DNA of 64,000 bases from Candidatus Aenigmatarchaeota archaeon (GTDB lineage: Archaea > Aenigmatarchaeota > Aenigmatarchaeia > CG10238-14 > SCSR01). Position 1 is the first letter of the stretch, and the number at the start of each line of letters is the position of its first letter. Positions 2,290 to 45,035 of this stretch are shown in pieces. The notes under the pieces are model-generated. The model saw nothing but the letters and a program-made list of their open reading frames with translations, did not search any database and was not told where the DNA came from. The DNA is taken from the NCBI GenBank assembly GCA_018304615.1, contig JAGVVV010000008.1:25741-89740 (forward strand). The letters are read 5' to 3'. Position numbers and translations under genes: made by a program.

Positions 2290-3588
2290 TCAAATTACAA
2301 CTGCAGTTCCACCAGCATGCCAACTAACTCTTGGCCTAATATTAACTGTGAATATTTTTTCCAGATTGTCGTCAAGAATCATCGCGGCCCCAGGCCATCT
2401 AGGAAGAGAGTTGATGTATTTCCACATGTCCTCCATTAGATATGTCTGCATTACTGCGTTGAGAGCCATCAAATCAGCTTTAGAAGTGAGTCTATGAGTG
2501 ATAACTAAATCTGTCTGACTAAGAATATCCTGATGGATTTTGTTGGGCATCTGTGTTATCATAACCAAACTCACTCCAGGCTCTCTTCCTTCCTTTGCTA
2601 TGGTAAGAAACGGTCCTGATGAAACTGTTTCCCTATCTGATGGTGCCCAGTTGTGTGCTTCGTCTGCAATTAGCCAGACTATAGGATATTTTTTCTTCAT
2701 GACAGTGCCTTCCATTTTCGCCAGCTCCTCCTCTTTTCTAGCAACAACTCTGAACTGATAAATTTTTCTTGCGATAAGAGCAACAAGGAAGTTTCTTACT
2801 GACCACGCTCCAGAGCTTCTTAATCTGGATAAATCTACTACAGTTATCTGGCCTGGTTGGACTAAATCATCTATATTAACTCCTTCAGTTCCGAAAACAC
2901 CCCATTGATTAGCTACTGTGAGCATGTTTTCTAATGCATCCTTAACTTCAGGAGCAGTCTCTCTATCATCCCTGATTTTCGAAATTAAATCTGGAATCAT
3001 AAAATGTTGACCTGATTCAATTAATGAATTGACATTTTTCTCTAATGCAATTGAGACTGCATTCGTCCTCTCAAGATTGAAAGCCAGTCCCCATTCATCA
3101 CCTGTGAACTCCCAAGGCAAGACTGAAATTCCTGCATCAACTGGCAAACCAGATTCTTTGTACTCCTCCAATTGCTTGAAAGGAACAAGAACTTTTATAT
3201 TTTCAAACCCTTTCGGTTCCAAATCCCAATCCTTAAGAAGTTCGGCTTGTTGGTCATTAGGCCTCTTCATGCTCCAAAAAATTCCCATCGTGTCAATTAT
3301 GACCACAGAAATATTGTTCCTATATTCTTCAGGCAACATGGCAATTTCTTCTGCGATAACTCCGCCAACATAAGATTTACCAGTTCCTCTTTTCCCGGAA
3401 ACAAGGATGATGTGCGGCCTCAACAGATCAAGAAGAACTTTTGTCGTGATGTGAGCATCTTCGCCAGTTCCGACAATGTGTTTGCCGATGTATCCAACAC
3501 CCTTGTCCTGGAATTTTTGCGCATCTTCCTTAATCCTTCCGACAATTGTGTATGTCTTAACCGTCTGGTCTAGAGTTGGCATATACAT
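2290..3588 (-). CDS. P-loop ATPase of the HerA/FtsK superfamily (DUF87-like)
   Basis: 432 aa; Walker A GKRGTGKSY, Walker B VWLIADEAHNW; no HAS-barrel or nuclease partner nearby. Confidence 0.65.
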   Translation of the reverse strand: MYMPTLDQTVKTYTIVGRIKEDAQKFQDKGVGYIGKHIVGTGEDAHITTKVLLDLLRPHIILVSGKRGTGKSYVGGVIAEEIAMLPEEYRNNISVVIIDTMGIFWSMKRPNDQQAELLKDWDLEPKGFENIKVLVPFKQLEEYKESGLPVDAGISVLPWEFTGDEWGLAFNLERTNAVSIALEKNVNSLIESGQHFMIPDLISKIRDDRETAPEVKDALENMLTVANQWGVFGTEGVNIDDLVQPGQITVVDLSRLRSSGAWSVRNFLVALIARKIYQFRVVARKEEELAKMEGTVMKKKYPIVWLIADEAHNWAPSDRETVSSGPFLTIAKEGREPGVSLVMITQMPNKIHQDILSQTDLVITHRLTSKADLMALNAVMQTYLMEDMWKYINSLPRWPGAAMILDDNLEKIFTVNIRPRVSWHAGGTAVVI

Positions 3589-17894: not shown

Positions 17895-18611
17895 ATGAAA
17901 TTTTTCGACCTGCACGTACATTCCGCTTTCTCAGAAGGAACCAGCTCATTAGAGCAGTTAGCAAGCATGGCAAAGGAGTTGGGTTTTTCAGGAATCTGCT
18001 TTGCAGAATACTACAATGTGGAAGAGCACATAAAAAAACTGATGACAGAGATAGAGAAAGCGAAGGGAAAGGTCGGGATTGAAATTTTTCTCGGATTTGA
18101 AGCAAGAAACCCTAGAGAATTGTCAGCTCTGATTGAAAAAAGAAAAAGATTTGATGTCCTGCTCGCGAGAGGCGGGGATTTGAAACTAAACAGATTGGCA
18201 GTGGAAACTCCTGAAGTTGACATACTCACTCATCCTGATTACGAAAGAACCGATTCAGGTCTCAATCACATTCTGGTCAGGCTTGCAGCGAAGAACGAAG
18301 TTGCGATAGAAGTCAATTTCAGGGAAGTACTAATCACGAATGGAAGGACAAGATCAAGAATCTTATCAAACATGAAGAACAATGTCATGCTCGCGAAGAA
18401 GCTTCACGCACCGATCATCATTTCATGCGGAGCAATATCAGAATGGGAACTGAAAAGCACTCAAGAATTAATCTCTTTCGGGACACAATTAGGATTGGAG
18501 TTAGATGAAGCAAAGGCAGCGATTTCAAGGATTCCGGAAGATATTTTGAGCAAGTCGAGCGAGAGGAGAGACAAGAGGTGGATAGCTCCCGGAGTTAAAG
18601 TAATAAAATGA
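17895..18611 (+). CDS. rnp3: RNase P protein component 3 (Rpp30, PHP-like TIM barrel)
   Basis: MKFFDLHVH N-terminus, 238 aa. Confidence 0.8.
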   Translation: MKFFDLHVHSAFSEGTSSLEQLASMAKELGFSGICFAEYYNVEEHIKKLMTEIEKAKGKVGIEIFLGFEARNPRELSALIEKRKRFDVLLARGGDLKLNRLAVETPEVDILTHPDYERTDSGLNHILVRLAAKNEVAIEVNFREVLITNGRTRSRILSNMKNNVMLAKKLHAPIIISCGAISEWELKSTQELISFGTQLGLELDEAKAAISRIPEDILSKSSERRDKRWIAPGVKVIK

Positions 18612-19075
18612 AACTGCCATACCACATACCAAAAGATTTGCTAAGCATTTTCTCAAAGACGAAACTTAACGTCCAGCCTGGAGAGTATCTGATTGTCAGA
18701 TTGCCTTTGAAGTATGGGGTCATGCTGAGAGAACTTTCAAAATTCGTGAGAGAACCGTTTTTTAATTATACAGTAGAGCCACAAGAAATAACTCTGGTCG
18801 TTCATGAGAGGGATTGGAGTAATATTGGAAGAGATTTCATTGAGACGCAGATAGAGCACGGTTACAATATTATCACGATGGACGTGACTGTGGATTTAAA
18901 TGTGATAGGTTACCTTGCTGTGATTTCCAGATTGCTCGCTGACGTGGGTGTCCCCATAATGGTTGTTTCAGGCCATAGGACTGATCATATACTTATCAAA
19001 AAATATGATCTGCAGAAAGCTATTTTCGTTTTACAGGATTTGATAAATAGCTGCAAAAATATAGTAATTGTATGA
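18608..19075 (+). CDS. ACT-domain protein (COG2150-like)
   Basis: 155 aa; ..YLAVISRLLADVGVPIMVVSG.. Confidence 0.45.
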   Translation: MKLPYHIPKDLLSIFSKTKLNVQPGEYLIVRLPLKYGVMLRELSKFVREPFFNYTVEPQEITLVVHERDWSNIGRDFIETQIEHGYNIITMDVTVDLNVIGYLAVISRLLADVGVPIMVVSGHRTDHILIKKYDLQKAIFVLQDLINSCKNIVIV

Positions 19076-19416
19076 AAAATAATCTGAAAATTCTAATGCC
19101 GACTCTCAGAGAAAAAGAAAGATATGTAGCCTTTCAAGTGATTTCTGAAGATTCAATAACTTATTCGGATTTAGAAGCTGCGATCTGGAACTCGATGATG
19201 GATTTTTTTGGAGAATATGGGACTGCTAAGACTTCGATGTGGATTGTTAAGAATCTGTATGACGAACAAAATCAAATCGGAGTGATAAGATGCAACAACA
19301 AATCGGTCCAAGAAGTGATCACGGGATTGGGACTGATTTCAAGGCTCGGAGATGTAAGAGTAACTATAAAAATTTTATCCGTCTCAGGAACCATTCGCGG
19401 TTTGAAAATAAAGTAA
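19072..19416 (+). CDS. rnp2: RNase P protein component 2 (Pop5/Rpp14)
   Basis: LREKERYVAFQV motif, 114 aa. Confidence 0.75.
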   Translation: MKNNLKILMPTLREKERYVAFQVISEDSITYSDLEAAIWNSMMDFFGEYGTAKTSMWIVKNLYDEQNQIGVIRCNNKSVQEVITGLGLISRLGDVRVTIKILSVSGTIRGLKIK

Positions 19417-19490
19417 CTAACAAGTGAATACAACTTTCTTAAGTTCTATAAATGATTAAAGTAAAATTACCACATTAATTTCTGATACAA

Positions 19491-20432
19491 ATGAAAGAAA
19501 TATTAACCAATTTAGAAGATGTATCAGGTAAATTCAAAAGTGTACATATAGATAATGGCTTTGTGTTCATAAAAGTCGGAAAGTATACGGCAAAAATCAA
19601 AATTCCTTTTAGAGTTAGCAAAGAACTTGCATCTTTATATGGACATGTTTTAGGCGATGGCCATATTAAAAAAGATGAACAACACTTTCACTATGTAAAC
19701 AAAAATAAGGATTTAATTGAAGAAGTCAAATCAGAAGTCAAAAATATATTTGCCGTTGAGACCATGGAGTATTTTAGAGAAAACAAACAAATCTATGATT
19801 TGAATTTCCCGGTAGTAATTGCAAAACTGCTTGTTTTATTAGGGTTTCCAAAAGGTAGAAAATCAATTCAAATATTGTCAATTCCAGAATGGTTGAAAAA
19901 TGAATCTGTAGATATCAAAGCGGCTTTTATCAGAGCTTTATTTGATGATGAAGCGTGGGTAGAAATAAAACAGGGTGGATTTTGTATCGGCTTTGGCCAA
20001 AACAAAAATGTCAACTTATTGCAATATCACAAAAATTACATTGAAGAAATTAGGAATATTTTGAGTCAATTAGGTGTCAATTCAAGTAAAATTTTTCAAA
20101 AATCGCAAAAAGGAGATTCTATACAACTTGGTTTTAAAATTTTAGGATTACAAAATCTTACTAATTTTAATTCAAAAATAGGATTTCTCTCTGAAAATAA
20201 ACAAAAAAGATTAGAATTCGTCTTGAACAATTTTAAACAGATACAGTTCGGTAAAAAAGAAGCGAAGTTAAAAATATTGGAAAAATTAAACGTACCTATG
20301 AAAAGTAAAGAATTGGCATTTTTGCTTAATAGGGATCAAAAAACTATTTGGAAACATTTACATCAACTGCATAGAAAAAATTTAGTCACTAAAATCGGTA
20401 CTAAAAATAAAGTATTTTGGAAAAGTGTCTAA
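19491..20432 (+). CDS. free-standing double-motif LAGLIDADG homing-endonuclease-family protein with C-terminal wHTH-like tail
   Basis: 313 aa; motif 1 LASLYGHVLGDGHI, motif 2 FIRALFDDEAWVE; very AT-rich coding region; located between rnp2 and psmA. Confidence 0.7.
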   Translation: MKEILTNLEDVSGKFKSVHIDNGFVFIKVGKYTAKIKIPFRVSKELASLYGHVLGDGHIKKDEQHFHYVNKNKDLIEEVKSEVKNIFAVETMEYFRENKQIYDLNFPVVIAKLLVLLGFPKGRKSIQILSIPEWLKNESVDIKAAFIRALFDDEAWVEIKQGGFCIGFGQNKNVNLLQYHKNYIEEIRNILSQLGVNSSKIFQKSQKGDSIQLGFKILGLQNLTNFNSKIGFLSENKQKRLEFVLNNFKQIQFGKKEAKLKILEKLNVPMKSKELAFLLNRDQKTIWKHLHQLHRKNLVTKIGTKNKVFWKSV

Positions 20433-20587
20433 CGCTAAAATTTAAAAGGGCACAAATTTAAACTATTATCAACAAGTTATTACAAGGTGATTCTCAAAGA
20501 ATGAGAAAATTATTTGCATTGGTGATAGGCAATGCCTGAAATGATGCCTGAATATAATCTAGTGGCTAAAGACCACATGATGTTCAA

Positions 20588-21336
20588 ATGGGCTACGACA
20601 GGACAAATTTGCCTAGTTAATAACTAGCAAAGTCCATTTGCTGTATCGTACCCAGTCATAAAGCTGGTATGAGGCAAAATTTAGTCCTGATGGCCGCCTG
20701 TTCCAAGTAGAGTATGCTAAGGAAGCAGTGAAGAAAGGATCGACTTGTTTGGGAATAGTTTTCAAAGATGGAGTATTGCTCGCGACAATCAGACCGTCGA
20801 CTGCACTGATGGTGCCTGAATCTCTGGAGAAGATTTTCCAGATTGACGACCATCTTGGAGCAGTGGCTTCTGGATATCTCGCTGATGCAAGAGTTCTTGC
20901 AAACCAGTCTAGGGTGAAGGCGCAAGTCCACAAAATCACTTATGAAGAGCCAATAGATGTCTGGGGTGCGGCAAAAGTTTTGGGAGACAGGATGCAGATT
21001 TCGACAATTTATGCAGGCTTAAGGCCGTTCGGAGTTTCGTTCTTGATTGGTGGAGTAGATAGAACAGGTCCTCATCTAGTTGAAACAGATCCTTCTGGAA
21101 TGCTTTACGAATGGAAGGCGAATGCTCTCGGAAGAGGAGCTCCAGTAGCAAACAAGATATTCAAGCAGAGATGGAAAGATGGCCTGAGCGAGAAAGAGGC
21201 CGTGGATATTGCTCTAGATGTAATCCAGAAGACTGAAAAAGAGAAAAAGGCAAACGCTATTGACGTTGCTATAATAACAAAAGACCTGAAATTCAGAAAA
21301 TTGAGGGAAGAGGAAATCAAGAAGGCTTTAAAGTGA
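20588..21336 (+). CDS. psmA: proteasome subunit alpha, N-terminal coding region interrupted by a ~65-71-nt intervening sequence
   Basis: ATG 20588 encodes MGYDR (gate motif) then stops (taa 20618, taa 20621); conserved ..FSPDGRLFQVEYAKEAVKKGSTCLG.. continues in another frame from 20662; the rest (to 21336) is an ordinary alpha subunit. Confidence 0.75.
20599..20689 (+). repeat. imperfect 16-bp inverted repeat (stem 20599-20614 / 20672-20689, two 1-nt bulges) enclosing a 57-nt loop across the psmA exon junction region
   Basis: CAGGACAAATTTGCCT pairs with AGGCAAAATTTAGTCCTG; loop contains the in-frame stops. Confidence 0.6.
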
Positions 21337-44727: not shown

Positions 44728-44931
44728 TTAGGACTTTGCAAACCAGTGCGGTTGACCGGCGAGAAGCTTTGATTTAACTTTTTTCTGTTTTTCCAGCTCT
44801 GCAAGTTTCTGCTTAGCTTTGCTTTCCTCCAAATCAAAAACGCGGGAAATTTCCTTGATGACATCTTTTATTTTCAGCCCAAGTTTTTCGAATAATTTTC
44901 TCCATTCCCCATCATTTTTGTTAGATAGCAT
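44728..44931 (-). CDS. small hypothetical protein
   Basis: 67 aa K/E-rich; start abuts tRNA 3' end. Confidence 0.3.
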   Translation of the reverse strand: MLSNKNDGEWRKLFEKLGLKIKDVIKEISRVFDLEESKAKQKLAELEKQKKVKSKLLAGQPHWFAKS

Positions 44932-45035
44932 GCCCCTGCAGGGATTTGAACCCTGGACCTCCTGCTTAGAAGGCAGTTGCTCTATCCAAACTGAGCTTTC
45001 CTCGTATTACTACAAGGGCATTAGCCATCAGGGGC
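44931..45035 (-). tRNA. tRNA-Arg (TCT) with a ~30-nt intron at a non-canonical position between acceptor stem and D-stem
   Basis: Acceptor GCCCCTG/CAGGGGC, D-arm GCTC-AGTTTGGATA-GAGC, anticodon loop CTTCTAA, T-arm CAGGG-TTCAAAT-CCCTG, discriminator A; 32 nt (ATGGCTAATGCCCTTGTAGTAATACGAGGAAA) lie where 2 nt are expected. Confidence 0.6.

Follow-up and report, generated by a model that had tools for sequence, protein, structure and literature searches.

A LAGLIDADG endonuclease gene beside interrupted psmA in Aenigmatarchaeota: a possible case of collaborative homing with archaeal introns

Endonuclease-intron partnerships and the Pop5-psmA junction

In cyanophages, the free-standing endonuclease F-CphI cuts intron-less psbA at the insertion site of a group I intron; the intron protects the carrier, and both elements are copied by repair (PMC6083498). 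A comparable arrangement is found in a stretch of 64,000 nt from the genome of a Candidatus Aenigmatarchaeota archaeon (contig JAGVVV010000008.1; hereafter the window). Here a gene for a predicted LAGLIDADG homing endonuclease lies between the genes of the RNase P subunit Pop5 (rnp2) and the proteasome alpha subunit (psmA), and the 5' end of psmA is interrupted by short introns with bulge-helix-bulge (BHB) geometry. As in the psbA system, an optional endonuclease gene stands beside an interrupted conserved gene, and no carrier lacks an intron. The components are different: the phage system pairs an enzyme of the Endo VII type with one self-splicing group I intron, whereas the archaeal chromosome combines a LAGLIDADG enzyme with up to four BHB introns of 20-35 nt. 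Cleavage and protection by F-CphI are also experimental results, whereas their counterparts in the archaeon are deduced from sequences.

A second phage system, mobA/gene 60 of phage T4, is said to have been described by Bonocora et al. in 2011 and reportedly consists of a free-standing HNH endonuclease and a 50-nt translational bypass insert. It resembles the archaeal locus in that a short noncoding insert (~50 nt in T4) in an essential gene moves with the neighbouring endonuclease and is thought to disrupt the target. However, the T4 insert is skipped by the ribosome, whereas the psmA introns have canonical BHB geometry and are predicted to be removed from the RNA, and both the enzyme family and the domain of life are different.

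The archaeal enzyme shares its fold and its catalytic Asp/Glu pair with I-DmoI, I-Tsp061I, I-PorI, PI-PfuI, TliVMA and PI-SceI. Unlike these enzymes, which reside inside an rRNA or tRNA BHB intron or an intein, it is free-standing, has its own start codon and carries an extra winged helix. Two LAGLIDADG domains followed by a helix-turn-helix (HTH) at the C-terminus also make up WhiA of Gram-positive bacteria, to which the protein can be matched structurally over its full length (3hyi). In WhiA/DUF199, a universal and vertically inherited family, the catalytic acids and lysines have been lost, with Arg/Gly and Phe/His/Met in their places (PMC3384342). By contrast, the archaeal protein keeps its catalytic residues, and its gene has a patchy distribution and moves horizontally.

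BHB introns in protein genes have one established precedent. The cbf5 gene of Crenarchaeota contains a single short BHB mRNA intron that has been gained and lost between lineages (Watanabe 2002; Yokobori 2009; PMC2738675), and this is the only established archaeal mRNA intron in the literature searched (PMC2738675). The psmA introns are likewise short BHB introns of an mRNA gene, presumably cut by the tRNA-splicing endonuclease. However, cbf5 has no endonuclease gene nearby and no known means of spreading, whereas psmA of these DPANN archaea has up to three or four introns in 90 nt, a micro-exon of 7 nt and a linked mobile endonuclease. The arrangement was not described in the literature searched for BHB introns of psmA or proteasome genes, for mRNA introns of DPANN archaea and for LAGLIDADG genes that stand free in archaea. 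The enzyme family is known, but nothing in that literature combines such a free-standing archaeal gene with clustered BHB micro-introns of a protein gene and with the joint mobility of the two.

A patchy gene beside an interrupted gene

The distribution of the gene was established by scanning one genome per species with an SBDS profile, which gave 80 Aenigmatarchaeota loci (referred to by L numbers where they must be told apart). In about 54 species Pop5 and psmA lie 65-200 nt apart with nothing between them, so the first-pass annotation, made from the letters of the window alone, was right, within this phylum, to call the two normally adjacent: most of the 80 loci show this spacing. The endonuclease gene occupies the spacer in only 13 lineages. 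Homologues with 45-69% identity stand at the identical Pop5-psmA position in six independent contigs, which alone would point to a conserved resident gene, but the species scan shows the opposite. The closest relative found, L011 (JAZDPU010000025.1; SBDS 92%, PsmA 88% and Pop5 87% identical), has an empty site. It is collinear with the window on both sides at ~80% nucleotide identity, and a 78-nt spacer corresponds to the 1.1 kb of the window (19409-20530); the Pop5 genes are 83% identical in nucleotides, and homology ends at 19408. Carriers fall at scattered places in a neighbour-joining host tree built from four concatenated housekeeping proteins, and are often sister to non-carriers (window/L011, L034/L032, L009/L075, L024/L020 and L015/L018).

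The tree of the endonucleases is at odds with that of their hosts. The sister hosts L005 and L061 are 84% identical, their endonucleases 54%; L007 and L028 are 86% identical as hosts and have endonucleases of different subfamilies with 27% identity. The reverse is found between L005 and L009 (host 73%, endonuclease 86%), L061 and L007 (62% and 70%), L034 and L042 (housekeeping proteins 66%, endonuclease 79%) and the window and L001 (67% and 76%). Between L005 and L009 the synonymous difference (pS) is 0.386 in the endonuclease gene vs 0.72-0.97 in six flanking genes. All 15 endonuclease copies are AT-rich, with a GC content at third codon positions (GC3) of 0.19-0.32, while the GC3 of the hosts ranges from 0.20 to 0.62. 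In L025 a decayed remnant with an in-frame stop is left between Pop5 and psmA. Remnants were also sought in the wide Pop5-psmA spacers of L069, L070 and L074, where nothing convincing was found, which leaves L025 as the sole clear case. Beside its remnant, the Pop5 gene of L025 is split by tblastn into two matches (aa 3-75 and 83-111), as if a frameshift or a small insertion had arisen there; the two features concern L025 3780-4299 and 3461-3776.

The pair L034/L032 offers a second comparison of filled and empty sites. Nucleotide identity is 90-96% farther off and drops toward the cassette on both sides, to 77-86% beside it, as would be expected of a co-conversion tract. The filled site (L034 2597-4276 vs L032 4188-4280) also holds an acetyltransferase-like open reading frame (ORF) of 156 aa (2615-3085) upstream of the endonuclease gene. 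Filled and empty sites also occur together in some metagenomes, for example Ga0315280/Ga0315282.

The AT-rich composition, the tree conflict, the low synonymous divergence and the decayed copy argue for a mobile gene rather than a domesticated regulator, and the gene is very probably a mobile, free-standing homing-endonuclease gene. The earlier proposal that such a gene has invaded the Pop5-psmA junction is supported by the fold of its product (see below), by presence and absence at one site, by the foreign composition and by the signs of transfer. That proposal had named, as the observation that would speak for a domesticated protein, orthologues at the same position with ordinary composition; the orthologues found are a scattered minority and always AT-rich, unlike their hosts.

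The neighbouring psmA gene is interrupted in 23 loci (window, L001, L004, L005, L007, L009, L012, L015, L018, L024, L025, L028, L030, L033-L035, L037, L039, L042, L049, L057, L061 and L074). A strict BHB rule, which demands a central helix of 4 bp and two 3-nt bulges and places the cut after the second base of the bulge, selects exactly the three intron boundaries of the window. The spliced psmA predicted in this way is 708 nt long and encodes 235 aa with no stop, and 209 of the 235 residues are identical to the uninterrupted L011 PsmA. The same rule restores the consensus PEYMGYDRT[IM]A[VM]... in 22 of the 23 interrupted loci, with 3-4 of the 4 helix pairs formed and inner helices of 3-11 bp. 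The strict solution failed in L001. Since L012 and L015 have introns homologous to those of L001, the failure probably lies in the consensus pattern or in a helix of three pairs out of four. The introns are 20-35 nt long and fall on six sites within ~90 coding nt (PEY^M, PE^Y, T^I, TI^A, V^F and QV^E; the sites are named A, A', B, B2, C and D), with at most three introns per psmA in resolved loci and micro-exons down to 7-9 nt. For the site-B intron, seven loci (the window and six others) could be compared, and in this small sample 9 of 12 pairs show compensatory changes, including a central helix that turns from GAC/GUC to AAC/GUU.

Interruptions of this kind are confined to the 5' end of psmA. 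When neighbouring genes or gene bodies, seven in all, were tested for continuity by tblastn, p30, Pop5, the psmA body, SBDS, Rrp4, Rrp41 and Rrp42 were essentially continuous in 60-80 loci each. This test replaced a strict BHB scan of the whole window, which was uninformative (144 matches vs 87-112 in shuffles). Gene callers truncate psmA in every carrier, with products of 147-206 aa.

Gene and interruptions are tightly associated, in line with the earlier suggestion of a link between the history of the endonuclease and the interruption of psmA. All 13 carriers have an interrupted psmA vs 10 of 54 non-carriers (Fisher p=4.5e-8, a value that ignores kinship). In about 30 more loci, from a metagenome scan with the family profile (80 of 169 matches kept), the gene lies 140-630 nt upstream of psmA, and all have at least one intron. 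Where a relative stands upstream of Pop5 instead (L103 and L114), psmA is intact. Intron site C occurs only alongside endonuclease subfamily 1, and site D only alongside the L007/L061 endonuclease clade, although these hosts are distant. In both window/L011 and L034/L032 the closest relative lacks the gene as well as the introns, yet intron-only genomes exist. The association suggests that the endonuclease and the psmA introns may travel jointly as one mobile cassette.

A third element apparently travels with the cassette. This is a small upstream ORF (uORF) that, across loci, has 5-14 codons, ends within psmA codons 2-3 and encodes a partly conserved peptide (..ALVIG[ND]A, then stop). It contains the Shine-Dalgarno sequence of psmA. 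Of 14 loci with the endonuclease gene, 11 have the uORF together with a Shine-Dalgarno sequence of its own (in L012 by eye), and so do L025 and L030; besides the window, the uORF loci are L001, L004, L005, L007, L009, L012, L015, L024, L025, L030, L034 and L061. It was not found in L011 and nearly all empty sites, and is thus almost restricted to loci with a present or past endonuclease gene. The uORF may serve as a putative translational-coupling device.

These observations can be joined in a model of collaborative homing with archaeal introns, in which the introns provide immunity by splitting the target, and to which a probability of about 0.6 is given. The anatomy of the locus, the mobility of the gene and its association with the introns are observed; for the model we further infer DNA cleavage, the position of the target, intron immunity and the actual splicing. 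The gene would be a selfish element that moves horizontally among Aenigmatarchaeota, always into the Pop5-psmA spacer. When carrier DNA enters a cell, the enzyme would cut the naive chromosome within codons ~8-25 of psmA, where the 5' end of the gene is highly conserved, and the break would be repaired from the carrier allele. Repair would copy the endonuclease gene, the uORF and the short BHB introns 100-190 nt downstream in psmA. In the carrier DNA these introns would split the recognition sequence and so make the carrier immune. The tRNA-splicing endonuclease and ligase of the host would remove them from the RNA, so that the proteasome subunit would still be made. If endonuclease lineages of shifted specificity invaded again and again, and the gene then decayed and was lost, this would build up a mosaic of up to three or four micro-introns, and the intron-only genomes and the decayed L025 copy would fit the usual cycle of invasion, decay and loss.

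Several points weigh against this model. No intron site is common to all carriers, and L012 and L024 have the site-A intron only, ~25-35 exonic nt upstream of site C, so that several target specificities must be assumed. Ten genomes have introns without the gene, which means that the introns do not depend on it, and part of the association might be due to common ancestry or to mere co-conversion. A shared AT bias could deflate the synonymous divergence of the endonuclease genes somewhat. The endonuclease ORF is under purifying selection (ratio of nonsynonymous to synonymous change, dN/dS, ~0.16), and an intact ORF under such selection fits a host function too. A scan of viral contigs for the endonuclease family found no relatives, so no virus can be proposed as a vector. 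Finally, all genomes are metagenome-assembled.

Part of this evidence also accords with a different reading, in which a mobile endonuclease cuts elsewhere, for example in the Pop5-psmA spacer or at the 3' end of Pop5, and the introns are co-conversion passengers or mark an unrelated hot spot at the psmA 5' end. Introns without the gene in 10 genomes, intron positions that vary among carriers (A, A', B, B2, C and D), a divergence gradient that reaches both sides of the cassette in L034/L032, and copies upstream of Pop5 with intact psmA in L103 and L114 are all in its favour. However, hitchhiking alone does not predict that none of 13 carriers, nor of the ~30 metagenome loci, is without an intron. 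The introns are also limited to ~90 nt of one gene beside the insertion, with seven neighbouring genes or gene bodies clean, and their sites follow the subfamily or clade of the endonuclease, not the host. This reading is rather unlikely.

The protein and the alternatives for its role

The 313-aa protein meets the curated cut-off of Pfam LAGLIDADG_3 (E=2e-10), which is a significant result for the profile search that the first-pass annotation had proposed, and both LAGLIDADG motifs it quoted are in place (Table 1). The protein begins with a small beta domain, continues with two LAGLIDADG core domains and ends in a winged helix. In motif 1, G55 and D56 are invariant in 19 family members, and 12 of 15 locus copies match GxxxGDG by regular expression; such motif expressions missed at least one motif in each of L005, L024 and L028. 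In motif 2, all family members share D152 and D153, and at least 90% of them have E154, with Asp in one member. K71 and K172 are also invariant and occupy matching positions of the two protein halves, so they probably belong to the active site. In I-DmoI, D20/E117 and K42/K120 are essential and correspond to D56/E154 and K71/K172 of the archaeal protein (PMC3384342).

The AlphaFold (AF2) model has a confidence (pLDDT) of 92 and shows the order of helices and strands expected for a monomeric two-motif LAGLIDADG endonuclease. Its best Foldseek matches are the TliVMA intein endonuclease (7e-10) and I-Tsp061I (2e-9), followed by PI-PfuI, PI-SceI and I-DmoI, with a probability of 1.0 for I-Tsp061I, I-DmoI, PI-PfuI and PI-SceI. 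A search of the PDB with a profile of 19 family members returns the endonuclease parts of V-ATPase inteins and PI-PfuI, and the best NCBIfam match is the endonuclease region of intein-containing RtcB (1.9e-17). Similarity to intein proteins is confined to their endonuclease region: no Hint or intein-splicing domain was found by Pfam, and the ORF, out of frame with its neighbours, starts and stops with codons of its own (ATG start). For the C-terminal tail, Pfam gives a weak match to HTH_5 (ArsR-type HTH; E=1e-3, aa 259-301), the PDB profile search the ArsR-like regulator PH1932 (3e-6) and NCBIfam the Csa3-like winged helix cas_HTH (1.5e-7), and the model shows three helices and a beta hairpin at aa 255-312. 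Taken together, sequence and model make it fairly likely that the protein is a free-standing homing endonuclease of the LAGLIDADG_3 type, which is intein-like, and that it is active or was so until recently.

The same architecture raises the question of a domesticated, WhiA-like regulator of the psmA/exosome superoperon, inherited vertically with many losses. Such a role would suit the domain order of two LAGLIDADG domains and a C-terminal HTH, the full-length Foldseek match to WhiA (3hyi, 1e-6; also 8dy9), which ranks below those to homing endonucleases, and a winged helix like those of ArsR/PH1932 regulators. It would also suit the intact ORF (dN/dS 0.16) and the position directly upstream of the psmA start in all carriers. 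However, the protein keeps D56/E154 and K71/K172, whereas WhiA has lost the catalytic acids and lysines (PMC3384342). The gene is patchy even between near-identical hosts (L034/L032 and window/L011) and present in a scattered minority of species; gene and host trees conflict, and synonymous divergence between L005 and L009 is half that of the flanks. Its composition has never been ameliorated to that of the host, and one copy has decayed. A regulator of this kind is therefore improbable.

A third proposal is that the protein acts as a maturase-like helper in the folding or splicing of the psmA micro-introns, by analogy with the LAGLIDADG maturases of group I introns. Such maturases exist in organelles, and the strict co-occurrence of the gene with introns in the adjoining gene would fit this role; LAGLIDADG maturases are also mentioned in PMC3384342. 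On the other hand, ten species have introns of the same kinds in a presumably essential psmA without the gene. The introns follow the canonical BHB rule of the tRNA-splicing endonuclease, so that no helper is called for, and a tRNA of the same genome has a predicted 14-nt BHB intron. Since the catalytic residues for DNA cleavage are kept as well, a helper role is highly improbable.

Organization of the locus

The gene row around the endonuclease, p30 - Pop5 - psmA - SBDS - Rrp4 - Rrp41 - Rrp42, follows the usual archaeal order, and Pfam confirms rnp2 (Pop5) and psmA as the flanking genes, as had been claimed. The 313-aa ORF reported earlier was also confirmed (Table 1); the span then given for it, 19417-20587, does contain the ORF but runs all the way from the stop of Pop5 to the ATG of 'MGYDR'. 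A protein identical to the ORF product is on record from a Candidatus Aenigmarchaeota metagenome-assembled genome. The visible AT-richness of the ORF is borne out by its GC content (0.284; GC3 0.24), compared with 0.435 (GC3 0.433) for psmA, SBDS, Rrp4 and Rrp41, and by 300-nt windows, with a GC content of 0.26-0.31 within the ORF and 0.35-0.48 in the flanks.

Table 1. Features of the Pop5-psmA locus, in positions of the window except in the last row
Feature	Position	Strand	Remarks
Pop5/Rpp14 (RNase P subunit), upstream flank of insertion	19072..19416	+	Pfam RNase_P_Rpp14 E=1.2e-20
AT-rich spacer before endonuclease gene	19417..19490	+	without counterpart in the L011 empty site
LAGLIDADG homing-endonuclease gene, free-standing (predicted)	19491..20432	+	313 aa, ATG start; ORF and Pfam LAGLIDADG_3
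LAGLIDADG motif 1 (LYGHVLGDGHI)	19635..19667	+	aa 49-59; catalytic Asp56 at 19656-19658
LAGLIDADG motif 2 (IRALFDDEAWVE)	19929..19964	+	aa 147-158; catalytic Glu154 at 19950-19952
C-terminal winged helix (ArsR/Csa3-like) DNA-binding domain	20247..20429	+	Pfam, PDB profile, NCBIfam, model
Spacer after endonuclease gene	20433..20500	+	TATA-like AAAATTTAAAAG, read by eye, at 20437-20448; uORF Shine-Dalgarno AGGTGAT at 20485-20491
uORF, 12 codons (MRKLFALVIGNA, then stop)	20501..20539	+	own Shine-Dalgarno 20485-20491; stop overlaps psmA codons 2-3; contains the psmA Shine-Dalgarno
psmA exon 1 (MPEMMPEY)	20532..20555	+	92% nucleotide identity to L011 psmA start; frame reconstruction
psmA intron A, BHB, 32 nt	20556..20587	+	4-bp helix GAAT/GTTC, 3-nt bulges; joins PEY to MGY
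psmA exon 2 (MGYDRT and first Ile base), 19 nt	20588..20606	+	
psmA intron B, BHB, 31 nt	20607..20637	+	helix GGAC 20601-20604 with GTCC 20632-20635; restores T-I-A-V
psmA micro-exon 3, 7 nt (TTGCTGT)	20638..20644	+	
psmA intron C, BHB, 34 nt	20645..20678	+	helix TGCT/GGCA (one G-U), inner helix 7 bp; restores V-F-S
psmA exon 4, body of proteasome alpha subunit	20679..21336	+	Pfam Proteasome 1.6e-50
Related LAGLIDADG copies at the p30-Pop5 site	L005 3109-4263 (= L056 526-1377); L057 1924-3153; L103 3001-3840; L114 355-1014		

The start of psmA is the ATG at 20532, which follows the Shine-Dalgarno sequence GGTGAT (20521-20526), and not position 20588 as the first-pass annotation had implied. 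The 'intron-like interruption' it saw in psmA is real, but consists of three introns of 31-34 nt, not one, within the first 147 bases of the gene. The psmA start lies 100 nt and the three introns 124-246 nt downstream of the endonuclease stop. A single 65-nt intron after YDRT, suggested by a long helix in an RNA fold of 20580-20700, was considered and rejected: orthologous loci and the BHB rule give introns B and C with the 7-nt exon between them, and intron A upstream. No homology was found between the spacer 19417-19490 and the 78-nt L011 spacer. Two TATA-like elements read by eye, TTCTATAAAT ~40 nt before the endonuclease ATG and AAAATTTAAAAG in the spacer after the gene, are candidate promoters. 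An Rfam search of the whole window returned tRNAs only and nothing at this locus.

That the endonuclease ORF lies within one large BHB intron or excised RNA (~19417-20690), as the first-pass annotation considered and as in the rRNA introns that encode enzymes of the I-DmoI type, would agree with the classically intron-borne nature of archaeal LAGLIDADG genes but can practically be dismissed: pairing 19380-19495 with 20425-20540 gave six weak BHB candidates vs 1-17 in shifted controls, the three small introns fully explain the PsmA N-terminus, and, as the ORF lies upstream of the psmA start at 20532 with its own Shine-Dalgarno, there is no exon to join across it.

The window also holds a tRNA-Arg(UCU) gene (44931-45019, minus strand) that was missed by ARAGORN and found by Rfam only in part (model positions 9-63). 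Between its positions 8 and 9, an intron of 14 nt (~44998-45011) is predicted from a strict BHB motif, and the removal of this intron would join GCCCUUGU to AGCUCAG... and give a matching acceptor stem. With such a predicted intron in the same genome, the organism evidently copes with unusual BHB introns.

A second site with related LAGLIDADG genes (33-39% identical) lies between p30 and Pop5 (Table 1); some of these genes have an N-terminal extension in addition to the winged helix. L057, which has a copy there, has one psmA intron and an extra ORF of 145 aa between Pop5 and psmA. The p30-Pop5 slot is variable in content, with an ACT-domain gene in the window (18608-19075), a cupin gene in L001 (5200-5553), CutA1 in L007 (2684-2995), NUDIX and CutA1 in L005 (4321-5069) and an extra ~450 nt in L011 (1036-1484) relative to the window. 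The slot forms a second plastic spot within a gene row that is rigid elsewhere. About 50 distant family members (24-35% identity; metagenome loci L115-L170) are found away from psmA, so that the family comprises a broader set of apparently free-standing LAGLIDADG genes elsewhere. In L004 an IS605 OrfB/TnpB (Cas12f-like) gene (1-262) lies ~5.7 kb upstream of the endonuclease locus, with no evident connection to it.

Meaning for archaeal introns

The family offers new monomeric LAGLIDADG enzymes fused to a winged helix, the natural target of which is predictable. The mis-calling of psmA as an N-terminally truncated gene means that annotation pipelines miss introns of this kind. The locus offers a testable answer to how BHB introns without an endonuclease gene, including those in protein-coding genes, arise and move: the neighbouring endonuclease would supply mobility, and the intron immunity. 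A wider, more tentative generalization, for which the odds fall a little short of even, is that short BHB introns in archaeal protein genes can arise, spread and build up as devices by which free-standing homing endonucleases make their carriers immune; the 5' end of psmA would then record an arms race, in which successive LAGLIDADG lineages of shifted target specificity each introduced or selected an intron that divides their own target, and in which the introns outlive the endonucleases. On this reading the locus would be the first archaeal example of collaborative homing, and the first in which introns are spliced by the host rather than by themselves; it would also supply a mechanism for the origin and mobility of BHB introns that lack an endonuclease. 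If the collaborative homing model is true, such homing, known from phages with group I introns, would also reach archaeal chromosomes and introns in need of the tRNA-splicing machinery of the host.

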